From the sequence record KP010268: a stretch of DNA of 37,146 bases. One strand, given 5' to 3'. The notes below the pieces were generated by a model. It made no database searches, was not told where the DNA came from, and saw only the letters and a list, made by a program, of their open reading frames with translations. The position numbers and the translations under genes are program-made. Source of the DNA: Shigella phage SfMu. Positions 3,296 to 11,413 of this stretch are shown piece after piece. Every line of letters starts with the position of its first letter. The first letter of the stretch is position 1.

Positions 3296-4234
3296 ATGAA
3301 TATTTCCGATATTCGCGCAGGACTGCGCACGCTTGTAGAAAATGAAGAAACCACCTTTAAACAAATTGCTCTTGAGAGCGGGCTTTCTACCGGAACTATC
3401 AGTAGTTTTATCAATGATAAGTACAACGGGGATAACGAGCGTGTTTTACAAATGCTGCAACGCTGGCTGGAAAAATATCATGCAGTTGCAGAGCTACCTG
3501 AACCGCCCCGCTTTGTGGAAACGCAGACGGTAAAACAAATCTGGACAAGTATGCGTTTTGCCAGCCTGACTGAAAGTATTGCTGTTGTATGTGGCAATCC
3601 TGGTGTGGGCAAAACCGAAGCGGCCCGTGAATATCGCCGCACCAATAACAATGTCTGGATGATCACCATTACGCCATCCTGTGCCAGCGTTCTGGAATGT
3701 CTTACTGAACTGGCGTTTGAGCTGGGAATGAATGACGCACCACGCCGTAAAGGGCCGCTCTCCCGCGCCCTGCGACGTCGCCTTGAAGGTACACAGGGGC
3801 TGGTTATCATCGACGAAGCAGATCATCTTGGTACTGAAGCTCTGGAAGAACTCCGCCTGTTACAGGAATCAACCCATATTGGCCTTGTGCTGATGGGCAA
3901 TCACCGCGTTTATTCAAATATGACGGGGGGTAACAGAACGGTTGAATTTGCCCGTCTGTTTTCCCGTATTGCAAAGCCCACTGCAATTAATAAAACCAAA
4001 AAAGCCGATGTAAAAGCTATTGCGGATGCCTGGCATATTAACGGCGAAAAAGAACTGGAGTTATTACAGCAGATTGCGCAGAAACCCGGTGCGCTTCGCA
4101 TTCTGAATCATTCACTTCGCCTTGCCGCCATGACAGCCCATGGTAAAGGTGAGCGTGTTAATGAAGATTATCTGCGTCAGGCTTTCCGTGAATTAGACCT
4201 GGACGTTGATATTTCAACGCTGCTGCGTAATTAA
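3296..4234 (+). CDS. B: Transposition ATPase B (MuB-like AAA+ target DNA activator)
   Basis: 312 aa; Walker A GNPGVGKT and Walker B-like VIIDEADHL visible; directly downstream of A. Confidence 0.92.
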   Translation: MNISDIRAGLRTLVENEETTFKQIALESGLSTGTISSFINDKYNGDNERVLQMLQRWLEKYHAVAELPEPPRFVETQTVKQIWTSMRFASLTESIAVVCGNPGVGKTEAAREYRRTNNNVWMITITPSCASVLECLTELAFELGMNDAPRRKGPLSRALRRRLEGTQGLVIIDEADHLGTEALEELRLLQESTHIGLVLMGNHRVYSNMTGGNRTVEFARLFSRIAKPTAINKTKKADVKAIADAWHINGEKELELLQQIAQKPGALRILNHSLRLAAMTAHGKGERVNEDYLRQAFRELDLDVDISTLLRN

Positions 4235-9022: not shown

Positions 9023-9574
9023 ATGAATCGCACATCCCTGATTAAATTAATCCATGTCGCCCGTCGGGAGCTACAACTCGACGACGACACTTACCGCGCT
9101 TTTCTGATGCAGAAAACGGGCAAAATCAGTTGCCGCGAGCTGACGGTAACGCAACTGGAACAGGTGCTCGATGCCATGAAAGAACGCGGCTTTAAGAAGC
9201 TGAATAAACATCCACGTCGCCGCTTTAAGGGGCATGTCACGCCCCGCGAGAAGGTATACAAAGTCTGGCAGCAGATGGCAGAAGACGGTTTTATTACCGA
9301 TGGCGGTGATGTGGCGCTGGATAAATATGTTCAGCGCCTGACGGCGAAACGTAATGGCGGACAGGGTGTTTCCACGCTGGCGTGGTGTCATGGCGACACC
9401 CTGTTGATTGTTCTCGAAACTCTCAAGCAGTGGCATATCCGCTGTATTCGTGAAGCCTTTTCCCGTCACGGGCTTCCGTTGCCGGTCAGTCCGTCCGGGC
9501 GTGAACTGCGCGGCTATGATGCCATGACGGCGGCTTATGCCCATGCCAGAAAGACACGGAGGATGGCACAATGA
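9023..9574 (+). CDS. gemA: GemA-like early protein (183 aa)
   Basis: Size and position immediately upstream of mor match Mu gemA; GGAGG RBS. Confidence 0.6.
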   Translation: MNRTSLIKLIHVARRELQLDDDTYRAFLMQKTGKISCRELTVTQLEQVLDAMKERGFKKLNKHPRRRFKGHVTPREKVYKVWQQMAEDGFITDGGDVALDKYVQRLTAKRNGGQGVSTLAWCHGDTLLIVLETLKQWHIRCIREAFSRHGLPLPVSPSGRELRGYDAMTAAYAHARKTRRMAQ

Positions 9575-9960
9575 CGGAAGATTTATTTGGTGATTTGCAG
9601 GATGACACCATCCTGGCACATCTTGACAATCCCGCAGAGGATGCGTCACGCTTTCCGGCACTGCTGGCGGAGCTGAACGATTTACTGCGCGGGGAGTTGT
9701 CCCGGCTGGGTGTTGATCCTGCCCATTCACTGGAGATTGTTGTGGCTATCTGTAAGCATCTGGGTGGCGGTCAGGTCTACATTCCACGCGGTCAGGTTCT
9801 GGACTCGCTGATTCGGGATTTGCGTATCTGGAATGATTTTAACGGTCGCAACGTCAGCGAACTGACCACCCGTTATGGTGTCACTTTCAATACGGTTTAC
9901 AAGGCCATTCGCCGGATGCGACGGCTGAAATACCGCCAGTACCAGCCCTCACTTCTGTAA
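9571..9960 (+). CDS. mor: Mor, middle operon regulator (transcription activator)
   Basis: 129 aa MTEDLFGDLQDDTILAHLDNPAED... recognised as Mu Mor; last gene of early operon; paralogous to C downstream. Confidence 0.9.
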   Translation: MTEDLFGDLQDDTILAHLDNPAEDASRFPALLAELNDLLRGELSRLGVDPAHSLEIVVAICKHLGGGQVYIPRGQVLDSLIRDLRIWNDFNGRNVSELTTRYGVTFNTVYKAIRRMRRLKYRQYQPSLL

Positions 9961-9965
9961 ACAGT

Positions 9966-9990
9966 AAAGCCGGTTAATCCGGCTTTTTTT
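9966..9990 (+). terminator. Rho-independent terminator at end of early operon
   Basis: AAAGCCGG-TTAAT-CCGGCTTT hairpin followed by T-run, directly after mor stop. Confidence 0.8.
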
Positions 9991-10037
9991 ACGTCCTCAA
10001 TATCCTGTGATGAATAACCGTACCGGGGGAAATCATC

Positions 10038-10268
10038 ATGGGTAAAGGCTGGAATGCATCCTTTCATCTTGGCAGACGTGAGCGGCTGCGTCAGGAGGTT
10101 TTGCACCGTGTCGCCGGTGGGCCACGGCCTGCGCCCCGCGACTATACCGGTCATGATGGCACCCACGGCAGTTATTACATGAAAGGCTGGCAGTCAGTTG
10201 ATATGCCGGAAATTCTTCACCACTGTCAACGTTATAAGGAAAAATATTGTGTACAGAAAATTCAGTGA
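10038..10268 (+). CDS. Hypothetical middle-operon ORF (76 aa)
   Basis: ORF between early terminator and C; no recognisable RBS, basic and Gly/Pro-rich composition. Confidence 0.35.
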   Translation: MGKGWNASFHLGRRERLRQEVLHRVAGGPRPAPRDYTGHDGTHGSYYMKGWQSVDMPEILHHCQRYKEKYCVQKIQ

Positions 10269-10380
10269 TGAATGTTTCGGGCCGTCCACGCTGATTAATG
10301 CGATAAAAGTGATTGCCCTTGTGGTTCTGATAACCATCAGTGCCGTGGTGTATCTTTTTGTCTGTTAACCGGGGGAAAAT

Positions 10381-10803
10381 ATGCAGCATGATTTATTTGA
10401 ACACGATCCGGCAATTCGCCAGTTAATCGGGCATATTGATAACATCCCGGCCCCGGAACTGGAATCACGCTGGCCCCGTTCAGTGGTTGATCTGATTGAT
10501 GTTCTGGAAAACGAACTGAAACGCCAGAACGTCAGCAATCCCCGTGAGCTTGCCCGTAAACAGGCCGTTGCCCTGTCCTGTTTTCTGGGGGGGCGGCAGT
10601 TTTACATCCCCTGCGGCGATACGATCCTGACCGCGTTACGCGACGATTTGCTTTACTGCCAGTTCAATGGTCGTAACATGGAAGAACTGCGTCGCCAGTA
10701 CCGCCTGTCCCAGCCGCAGATCTACCAGATTATTGCCCGCCAGAGAAAGCTGCATACACGACGTCATCAGCCTGATCTGTTCTCACCTGAAAGCCAGAAA
10801 TAA
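10381..10803 (+). CDS. C: C, late gene transcription activator
   Basis: 140 aa MQHDLFEHDPAIRQLIGHIDNIPAPELE... recognised as Mu C; Mor paralog (shared ...FYIPCGDTIL / QVYIPRGQVL and ...CQFNGRNMEEL / NDFNGRNVSEL). Confidence 0.9.
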   Translation: MQHDLFEHDPAIRQLIGHIDNIPAPELESRWPRSVVDLIDVLENELKRQNVSNPRELARKQAVALSCFLGGRQFYIPCGDTILTALRDDLLYCQFNGRNMEELRRQYRLSQPQIYQIIARQRKLHTRRHQPDLFSPESQK

Positions 10804-10894
10804 CCGGCATCCTGCCGGTTATTTCCTGTCACCATAATCCCGCACCTGCCATCTGATTTTTTAGACTGCCATCAGAGCATTTTTTCAGGGAAGC
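10804..10894 (+). promoter_or_regulatory. Putative late promoter Plys (C-dependent), overlapping a hairpin at the C stop
   Basis: Motif CATAATCCCGCACCT about 48-56 bp upstream of lys ATG, shared with the region upstream of gene I; hairpin AACCGGCA-TCC-TGCCGGTT at 10802..10820. Confidence 0.5.
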
Positions 10895-11413
10895 ATGATG
10901 GCGGGGATACCAAAAAAACTGAAAGCCGCACTGCTGGCGGCAACGATTGCCGGTGGCGGTGTGGGTGGTTATCAGGAAATGACCCGTCATTCTCTGATCC
11001 ATCTGGAAAATATCGCTTATATGCCTTACCGCGATATTGCCAGTGTGCTTACGGTCTGTGTGGGACATACCGGGCCGGATATCGAAATGCGCCGTTACAG
11101 CCATGCGGAGTGTATGGCTTTTCTCGACAGTGATTTAAAACCGGTTTATGCGGCAATCGATCGTCTTGTCAGGGTGCCGCTGACGCCATATCAGAAAACG
11201 GCGCTGGCAACGTTTATTTTCAACACCGGTGTTACCGCATTCAGTAAATCAACGCTGCTGAAAAAACTCAATGCCGGTGATTACGCCGGAGCGCGTGACC
11301 AGATGGCCCGCTGGGTGTTTGCCGCAGGCCATAAATGGAAAGGACTGATGAACCGTCGCGAAGTGGAAATGGCTATCTGGAATATCAGGGGGGCGGATGA
11401 CCTTCGCCAGTAA
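10895..11413 (+). CDS. lys: Endolysin (lysozyme-like, SAR-type N-terminus)
   Basis: 172 aa; Gly/Ala-rich weakly hydrophobic N-terminus KKLKAALLAATIAGGGVGGY typical of signal-anchor-release endolysins; recognised as Mu Lys. Confidence 0.88.
   Translation: MMAGIPKKLKAALLAATIAGGGVGGYQEMTRHSLIHLENIAYMPYRDIASVLTVCVGHTGPDIEMRRYSHAECMAFLDSDLKPVYAAIDRLVRVPLTPYQKTALATFIFNTGVTAFSKSTLLKKLNAGDYAGARDQMARWVFAAGHKWKGLMNRREVEMAIWNIRGADDLRQ

Follow-up and report, generated by a model that had tools for sequence, protein, structure and literature searches.

The window analysed here is the whole of sequence record KP010268 from Shigella phage SfMu (37,146 nt), and all coordinates are positions in that record, on the + strand unless stated. 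Within it we examined a short hydrophobic reading frame, gene 20, lying between the gene 18 orthologue and the late activator gene C. The features of the locus are as follows.

9953..10023, + strand: putative middle promoter region Pm, Mor-activated, placed by homology (Mu 9163-9233, offset +790)
9966-9986, + strand: mor terminator hairpin inside the Pm region, a terminator-like site found by scan
10038..10268, + strand: gene 18 orthologue, 76 aa, soluble (PHROG 2121, E 1.5e-37)
10236..10240, + strand: Shine-Dalgarno-like AAGGA, 8 nt 5' of the gene 20 GTG
10248..10249, no strand: deletion junction relative to Mu, 372 bp of Mu (9459-9830) absent
10249..10368, + strand: gene 20 (gp20), 39 codons plus TAA (95% identity to Mu gp20, AAF01097.1; PHROG 19823)
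10249..10275, + strand: N-terminal motif (M/V)-Y-R-K-F-S-D-E-C, predicted cytoplasmic, invariant across Mu-type alleles
10309..10365, + strand: transmembrane (tail-anchor) segment, residues 21-39, from hydropathy and an AlphaFold2 helix, preceded by the conserved K20
10344..10390, + strand: predicted RNA hairpin pairing gene 20's final 8 codons to the Shine-Dalgarno sequence (GGGGG, 10371-10375) and AUG of C, with the TAA in the loop
10381..10803, + strand: gene C, late transcription activator of the Mor/C family, 140 aa, last gene of the middle operon (Pfam PF08765, E 9e-34; Mu annotation)
10801..10824, + strand: middle-transcript terminator, placed by homology (Mu 10383-10406; Mu and D108 annotations)

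Gene 20 opens at a GTG (10249-10251) and ends at a TAA (10366-10368), and the 39 codons encode the product VYRKFSDECFGPSTLINAIKVIALVVLITISAVVYLFVC. Its 5' end overlaps the final 20 nt of the gene 18 frame, and 12 nt (10369-10380) separate its stop from the ATG of C at 10381, a gap that is identical in Mu. The original prediction had placed a short hydrophobic ORF here, and its start, stop, distance to C, AAGGA and overlap with gene 18 are all as we read them in KP010268. The duplex of AAGGA with the anti-Shine-Dalgarno sequence is predicted at -6.2 kcal/mol, where -5 is reached by about 22% of random 22-mers from KP010268. At the same place, other lineages carry AAAGGGG (-7.0, Mu), GGAGG (-9.5, the Escherichia coli SE11 prophage) and AAGGAGG (-11.7, a metagenomic phage, L046, described below), so that a Shine-Dalgarno sequence precedes gene 20 in four of five independent contexts, those of the divergent lineages included. 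Together with conservation of the frame, this signal supports the earlier proposal of a small membrane-peptide gene that is probably translated.

After K20, residues 21-39 of gp20 form one hydrophobic stretch. Its 19-residue Kyte-Doolittle hydropathy (2.96) is the highest among the 426 six-frame ORFs of at least 30 aa in KP010268, and a value of 2.5 or more occurs in only 3 of the 321 ORFs of 30-80 aa. The AlphaFold2 model of gp20 contains helices at residues 3-9 and 12-38 (mean pLDDT 83). Hydropathy and structure prediction thus both agree with the C-terminal transmembrane helix that had been proposed from the sequence. The Mu record AF083977 likewise describes gp20 as a 'transmembrane domain-containing protein', N-in and C-out with one transmembrane domain (Phobius, TMHMM).

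On sequence comparison, this ORF is the orthologue of bacteriophage Mu gene 20; it is already known and annotated, not new. The peptide is 95% identical to Mu gp20 (tblastn) and 92% to D108 gp20, and it matches PHROG 19823 over its full length (E 2.6e-30, residues 1-39 on profile positions 1-39). With this full-length profile match, a place directly before C and about 39 aa carrying a single C-terminal helix, it has every feature by which the Mu gp20 family is recognized. The exact peptide is recorded as AIY32319.1 (SfMu) and as an E. coli 'putative membrane protein', and the Mu allele as UniProt VG20_BPMU ('Uncharacterized protein gp20') and GenBank AAF01097.1. Gene 20 is also annotated in D108 (ACV50278.1), and in PhiR68_1 as 'hypothetical protein Mup20'. 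The Mu, D108 and SfMu proteins are all 39 aa, like the one here (92-100% identity), and in Mu and D108, as in KP010268, gene 20 is the middle-operon gene directly 5' of C and comes after gene 18; the single N-in/C-out helix predicted for Mu gp20 is also shared. The Mu allele differs in starting with ATG rather than GTG and in having serine rather than phenylalanine at residue 37. As a discovery the ORF therefore carries little weight: its annotation dates back to the sequencing of the Mu genome, the SfMu record carries it too, and a study of Mu lysis has cloned and tested it. What this analysis adds is cross-lineage selection on gp20 as an anchor with a motif, its retention without gene 19, its linkage to C, and a record of how annotation pipelines pass over it. 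Gene 20 is usually missed by automatic pipelines such as PGAP, which leaves it unannotated in Mu-type E. coli prophages, and the annotation of phage vB_YpM_Tongde also omits it. The original prediction had missed two points, namely that the ORF is the annotated gene 20 of Mu and that gene 19 is gone here.

In the Mu record (AF083977), gene 20 belongs to the Mor-dependent middle operon, where it has gene 19 on one side and C, the late activator gene, on the other. KP010268 is 98.9% identical to Mu over positions 9900-10500 outside the indel, and the region around gene 20 is 98.9-99.7% identical to Mu-family phages. The absent 372 bp comprise gene 19 in its entirety, whose Mu product is a multi-pass membrane protein of 120 aa, together with its spacer, as seen in alignments with Mu, D108, Tongde and PhiR68_1. 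The gap begins exactly at the first base of the gene 19 start codon and extends to the corresponding base in that of gene 20, with ATGT at both edges in Mu. Because the deletion extends from start codon to start codon, gene 20 in KP010268 occupies the translational slot held by gene 19 in Mu, and consequently it shares sequence with the end of gene 18 and has another Shine-Dalgarno sequence than in Mu. The same allele in the same arrangement had already been recorded from SfMu, vB_YpM_Tongde and many E. coli prophages, and SfMu has been reported to lack a homologue of Mu orf19 (PMC4406740).

Loss of gene 19 is common. The region is present in 41 of 5,426 complete E. coli genomes, and among the 40 E. 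coli matches listed, 18 contain the 372 bp and 22 do not. In our Mu-type set of 40 gene 20-bearing sequences (KP010268 and the fetched loci), gene 19 is missing from 23 and present in 17, across three distinct upstream contexts. Viable isolated phages without gene 19 include vB_YpM_Tongde, PhiR68_1 and the vB_YpM series. All that the metagenomic phage L046 has left of gene 19 is a 5' remnant of about 58 nt, which indicates a loss independent of the clean deletion in KP010268. Comparison of these loci demonstrates that gene 20 has been kept through repeated (at least two independent) losses of gene 19, and its persistence is to that extent independent of gp19.

Conservation of the frame in related Mu-like phages had been set beforehand as the check on the prediction, and the frame proved to be conserved both in close relatives and in two lineages diverged by about 40% at the nucleotide level. 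It is intact in all 40 Mu-type sequences. Its only structural change, seen at loci L008 and L013, is the loss of 2 bp toward the 3' end of gene 20, which keeps the helix and moves the stop to 11 nt inside C. Within the Mu clade, about five nonsynonymous changes against two synonymous ones look neutral and are too few for a selection test; the divergent L008 allele carries six synonymous and five nonsynonymous changes (pN/pS 0.27, binomial P 0.03-0.08).

A word-indexed search of 5.8 billion proteins returned no relative below 82% identity, and when 1.84 billion representative proteins were searched exhaustively with HMMER, a single distant member was gained, P0006 (MYRKFSEECAGLSALLTMMKVITVIALVVIVICICLSVH; 39 aa), from a divergent metagenomic Mu-like phage (L046/L047). 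The gene order at this locus is Mor, GH108 muramidase, gene 18, the gene 19 remnant, gp20, C and lysozyme; AAGGAGG stands upstream of the gp20 homologue, whose stop lies 14 nt 5' of a C gene 81% identical to that of KP010268. A further homologue of 41 aa (MMYRRFSNECSGMATLLMVMKGITVIALLAVVTGICLLVFR; PGAP WP_254901872.1) is found in the E. coli SE11 prophage, with GGAGG upstream and 10 nt between it and C. Both are about 40% identical to KP010268 gp20 in amino acids and about 60% in nucleotides. The three lineages nonetheless keep M-Y-R-[KR]-F-S-x-E-C-x-G, K20, a length of 39-41 residues, a hydrophobic tail (19 residues in L046/L047 and SE11, as here) and the place before C, the stop falling 10-14 nt short of it. 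Unlike KP010268, both divergent loci carry a GH108 muramidase gene after Pm, and gene 19 is full in SE11. Across 2.9 million viral contigs, a DNA pattern for the N-terminal motif gave 15 matches, every one of them gene 20.

The pattern of substitution between these lineages is that of a constrained peptide. For the three lineage pairs, dN/dS of gene 20 is 0.65, 0.40 and 0.24; the synonymous excess is significant between L046 and SE11 (binomial P = 0.009) and not between Mu and L046 (P = 0.25). Gene 20 has a between-lineage pN of 0.22-0.37; for C the range is 0.10-0.13, and for gene 18 it is 0.07-0.08. KP010268 and L046 differ at 27 of the 54 nt of the helix region, whose mean hydropathy is 2.98 in the former and 3.37 in the latter. 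In 20,000 simulations of random substitution there, such a hydropathy was never reached, and only 0.2% were free of a polar residue, a charged residue or a stop. Constraint on motif, length and hydrophobicity across lineages points to a genuine protein-coding gene selected as a membrane anchor. Judged by these alignments, gene 20 evolves fast, yet selection keeps its product a membrane anchor with a specific motif at the N-terminus.

The gene is not universal among Mu-like phages. It is absent from the Erwinia-type relatives, which are the next closest bearers of C (67% identical), and the presence of C without gene 20 there indicates that Mu-like phages in general do not need it. In more distant C-bearing viral contigs (C 54-67% identical), no small hydrophobic ORF preceded the C/Mor gene; the 54%-identical matches look like Mor rather than C. 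Scanning the GTDB species-representative genomes with the gp20 alignment gave no confirmed locus, and with C as query the same genomes gave one locus only, in Erwinia tracheiphila, without a gp20-like ORF. Searches with gp20 against Pfam, NCBIfam, PADLOC and the PDB found no match.

Taking this evidence together, we consider it likely that the ORF is best explained as the Mu gene 20 orthologue encoding a predicted single-pass inner-membrane microprotein, an accessory protein in which a tethered motif or the helix may bind a membrane partner. By homology with Mu, gene 20 would be transcribed with genes 18 and C from the Mor-dependent Pm and would be silent in the lysogen. The inverted repeat AACCGGCA...TGCCGGTT is visible at the terminator position 10801..10824, although a simple terminator scan did not call this site, and the terminator sets genes 18-20-C apart from the late lys operon. 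A scan of 9500-11200 against Rfam gave a sub-threshold sroD match on the mor terminator and nothing else. The anatomy of the junction, where the gene 18 stop falls 17 nt into gene 20, suggests that gene 20 translation is probably coupled to that of gene 18, with help from the AAGGA. The resulting peptide would comprise an N-terminal segment of about 20 residues, predicted to be cytoplasmic and carrying MYR(K/R)FSxEC and K20, and a C-terminal tail-anchor helix of 19 residues with essentially no periplasmic domain. A tail-anchored N-in/C-out topology is suggested by R3, K4 and K20 on the N side and by nothing following the helix. Insertion into the membrane would be post-translational, because all 39 residues fit in the ribosome exit tunnel. 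We speculate that gp20, through its helix or its N-terminal motif, binds an inner-membrane partner of host or phage during the middle-to-late phase of infection, conferring a conditional fitness benefit. As a possible secondary effect, ribosomes terminating 12 nt before the start of C might aid initiation of C.

An alternative hypothesis links gene 20 in function to the late activator C and not to lysis: its translation would set the amount or timing of C, or its membrane-tethered MYRKFSxEC would bind C or a host factor that C needs. The genetic linkage itself is clear. Gene 18 is under strong purifying selection (pN 0.07-0.09 against pS 0.6-0.86), and in several relatives compared with KP010268 it approaches synonymous saturation (pS 0.77-0.86) where gene 20 has zero synonymous differences and C a pS of 0.05-0.07. 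Saturation on one side and near-identity on the other place a mosaic boundary at the 18/20 junction, with gene 20 in the block of C. Conversely, an STEC1575-type Mu-like prophage has the GH108 gene, a gene 18 homologue and a gene 19-like multi-pass protein, and neither gene 20 nor C there, which indicates that gene 20 does not travel with that module. Gene 20 is thus tied to C in its inheritance and not to the GH108-18-19 block. If the tie were also functional, it would explain the 10-14 nt spacing in three lineages, the shared mosaic block and the survival of gene 20 through losses of gene 19; even so, we regard a dedicated role in C function as unlikely.

A narrower version of this idea, that gene 20 matters solely as a translated upstream ORF which brings ribosomes to C or unmasks its ribosome-binding site while the peptide itself is irrelevant, seems to us quite unlikely. 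Its stop near the downstream start is what is expected of translationally coupled upstream ORFs as a general class, and so is a hairpin to the downstream ribosome-binding site. The distance to the C start stays short in every lineage (12 nt here, 10-14 nt in the others, and in the frameshift allele a stop 11 nt beyond that start), gene 20 is always found with C and in its mosaic block (zero synonymous differences where gene 18 pS is up to 0.86), and the KP010268 hairpin joins the last 8 codons to the Shine-Dalgarno sequence and AUG of C with the stop in its loop. Unlike members of that class, however, gene 20 has a constrained peptide sequence and a hairpin that relatives do not conserve. The hairpin is predicted at -17.6 kcal/mol in KP010268 (z about -2.0 to -2.2), but in the commoner Mu allele it is no better than shuffles (z -0.8), and it is lost in the L008 allele. 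No equivalent was found in L046 or SE11, where the consensus is -0.5 kcal/mol with no covariation or compensatory pairs. Moreover, C has its own Shine-Dalgarno sequence in every lineage, Erwinia-type relatives have C without such an ORF, and the motif, K20, the length of 39-41 aa and the hydrophobic helix are kept beyond what translation alone requires. Constraint on the peptide, the separate Shine-Dalgarno sequence of C and the Erwinia-type arrangement argue that coupling cannot be the sole reason for the ORF; simple coupling to C by termination and reinitiation may occur as a side effect.

As a conserved regulatory device, a hairpin masking the ribosome-binding site is disfavored by its lack of conservation and covariation; the structure at 10344..10390 is probably incidental. 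The original prediction had also raised a leader peptide. An attenuator-type leader is excluded because only 12 nt lie between the gene 20 stop and the C start, with no terminator and a single, unconserved hairpin.

Small phage-encoded inner-membrane proteins often serve superinfection exclusion, and gp20 might accordingly be a defense-type membrane peptide acting against incoming phage DNA. The rapid evolution of gene 20 relative to C would suit a gene in conflict. By homology with Mu, however, the gene would be expressed only from the Mor-dependent middle promoter during lytic growth and not from the prophage, and no PADLOC defense model matched gp20 at E <= 1. We therefore consider an exclusion role very unlikely.

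A role in the timing of lysis, either as a holin or as the antiholin partner of the four-helix gp19, has a longer history. Samanta et al. 2021 proposed gp19 and gp20 as the holin-antiholin pair of Mu (as related by Chamblee et al. 2022, PMC9239132), and a part in lysis timing was also among the possibilities raised by the original prediction. Like lambda S105/S107 and phage 21's pinholin S68/S71, gp20 is a small phage-encoded membrane protein with its gene no more than about 0.5 kb from an endolysin gene, and it has one transmembrane helix. In some relatives a GH108 muramidase gene is followed by genes 18 and 19 in the same operon, an arrangement that makes the region look like a former lysis cassette. 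Yet gp20 differs from holins and antiholins in belonging to the middle rather than the late operon, in having a single helix and in lacking a periplasmic or cytoplasmic regulatory tail of the holin type. A holin is expected in a late lysis cassette co-transcribed with the endolysin, and gene 20 lies upstream of C instead; homology with Mu places two elements, the terminator of C and the late promoter Plys, between gene 20 and lys. The GH108-18-19 arrangement also occurs without gene 20 in the STEC1575-type prophage.

Experiments on the Mu allele bear directly on this question. In the experiments described in PMC9239132, cells induced for Mu gp19, gp20, both, or a clone of all candidates remained fully viable on DNP triggering, where lambda S105 and phage 21 S68 were lethal. 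Small hydrophobic toxins, such as type I toxins and single-gene lysis peptides, would be expected to arrest growth or lyse cells when made alone. Arabinose induction of Mu gp20 left viability unimpaired (Chamblee et al. 2022, PMC9239132), from a plain, untagged construct for which the passages on gp20 in that paper do not report protein detection (PMC9239132). A gp22-gp25 clone without genes 18-21 still lysed cells in the same account (PMC9239132). Toxicity of the peptide alone, named in the original prediction as a further check, had in effect already been assessed in these experiments on the Mu allele (residue 37 S, here F), with a negative outcome (PMC9239132). On this literature, as far as PMC9239132 describes it, Mu gp20 is an accessory, non-essential protein: it is neither a holin nor toxic, and it is dispensable for lysis. 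Mu lysis uses an SAR endolysin and the releasin gp25 in place of a holin.

Natural variation leads to the same view. A holin pair would include gp19, which is missing from KP010268 and from more than half of its relatives, and the retention of gene 20 without gene 19 is an independent natural argument against an obligate gp19/gp20 holin-antiholin pair. The non-lethality of Mu gp20 after DNP, with or without gp19, in the experiments of PMC9239132 and the natural variants without gene 19 both disfavor the lysis-timing idea, and we regard it as highly improbable.

Finally, so short a frame, left unannotated by PGAP in Mu-type E. coli prophages and varying in a neutral-looking way within the clade, might be suspected of having arisen by chance in a non-coding spacer that separates gene 18 from C, but it is the most hydrophobic of 426 ORFs in KP010268, shares length, motif, Shine-Dalgarno sequence and position across three lineages, has a dN/dS below 1 and keeps its hydrophobicity against simulation, and the cross-lineage conservation effectively refutes that reading.

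Relative to bacteriophage Mu (AF083977), gene 19, which encodes a 120-aa multi-pass membrane protein at Mu 9459-9830, is wholly missing at window position 10248/10249, so that gene 20, encoding the 39-residue membrane peptide gp20, stands next to gene 18. This 372-bp indel begins and ends precisely at a start codon, and Mu carries ATGT at each edge. The lack of an orf19 homologue in SfMu is already stated in a published study (PMC4406740). The form without gene 19 occurs in 22 of the 40 E. coli Mu prophages among the matches listed, or about half, and likewise in several isolated phages. In the metagenomic Mu-like phage L046, a 58-nt remnant lies between genes 18 and 20 (3908-3990), with ~74% identity to the 5' end of the SE11-type gene 19, and codes for a stub of only 27 aa. 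This marks a second loss of gene 19, independent of the first, in a phage that has kept gene 20.

The junction of genes 18 and 20 is also an abrupt mosaic boundary when the window (gene 18, 10038-10268) is compared with loci L006, L010, L018 and L040. Synonymous sites in gene 18 are near saturation in these comparisons (pS 0.77 to 0.86), and on the other side of the boundary gene 20 has no synonymous differences and C, the late activator gene, has a pS of 0.05 to 0.07. The gp20 peptide of the window is identical to AIY32319.1 from SfMu, and the top match to the window in the phage collection is Yersinia phage vB_YpM_Tongde (99.7%). Gene 20 is left uncalled by PGAP and by some phage annotations in Mu-type prophages (E. 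coli loci L005 to L008; vB_YpM_Tongde, L003), which produces a seeming gap of 112 nt ahead of C; the SE11-type homologue is called by PGAP (WP_254901872.1).

One allele of gene 20 (L008 1450-1590 and L013; proteins P0001 and P0005) has a 2-bp deletion close to the 3' end and an unusually high local divergence, with a pS of 0.25 compared to 0.06 in the flanks. The encoded protein has 46 aa, retaining the helix and adding a TGGKYAA tail, and the frame ends 11 nt within C. In some annotations this allele appears as 63 aa from an upstream TTG, or as 83 aa reading through into C. In the window itself, a hairpin at 10344-10390 (-17.6 kcal/mol) pairs the Shine-Dalgarno sequence and start codon of C with the last eight codons of gene 20, and the window's F37 (TTT) allele makes it stronger than the S37 (TCT) of Mu. 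Conservation of the hairpin does not extend to other lineages.

In some relatives of Mu, the gene immediately 3' of the middle promoter codes for a GH108 muramidase with a PG_binding_3 domain:
L005, L006, L007, L009 (649-1209), GH108 muramidase gene
L046 3143-3703, GH108 muramidase gene
L048 842-1402, GH108 muramidase gene
L049 2468-3064, GH108 muramidase gene
In every such relative the next gene is a gene 18 homologue, and an STEC1575-type prophage has the order GH108, 18-like, 19-like, with both C and gene 20 missing. From this gene order, genes 18 and 19 may be parts of a GH108 lysis module that is either alternative or ancestral. The gene 18 product is under strong conservation (pN ~0.08).

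A further reading frame of the window overlaps genes 18 and 20:
window 10036-10389, minus strand, 117-aa ORF antisense across genes 18 and 20
It is probably spurious; it would be broken in relatives containing gene 19. A sub-threshold Rfam match to sroD at window 9933-9991 (20 bits, gathering score 50; E 0.52) coincides with the mor terminator hairpin within the Pm region and is almost certainly a chance match. In the E. coli SE11 prophage, the gene 3' of C (L048 2632-3060) belongs to the lysozyme family and encodes just 142 aa; the N-terminus of its product (…LAIVVLAACGGWQ) resembles a lipobox-bearing lipoprotein signal, not the SAR domain found in Mu gp22.
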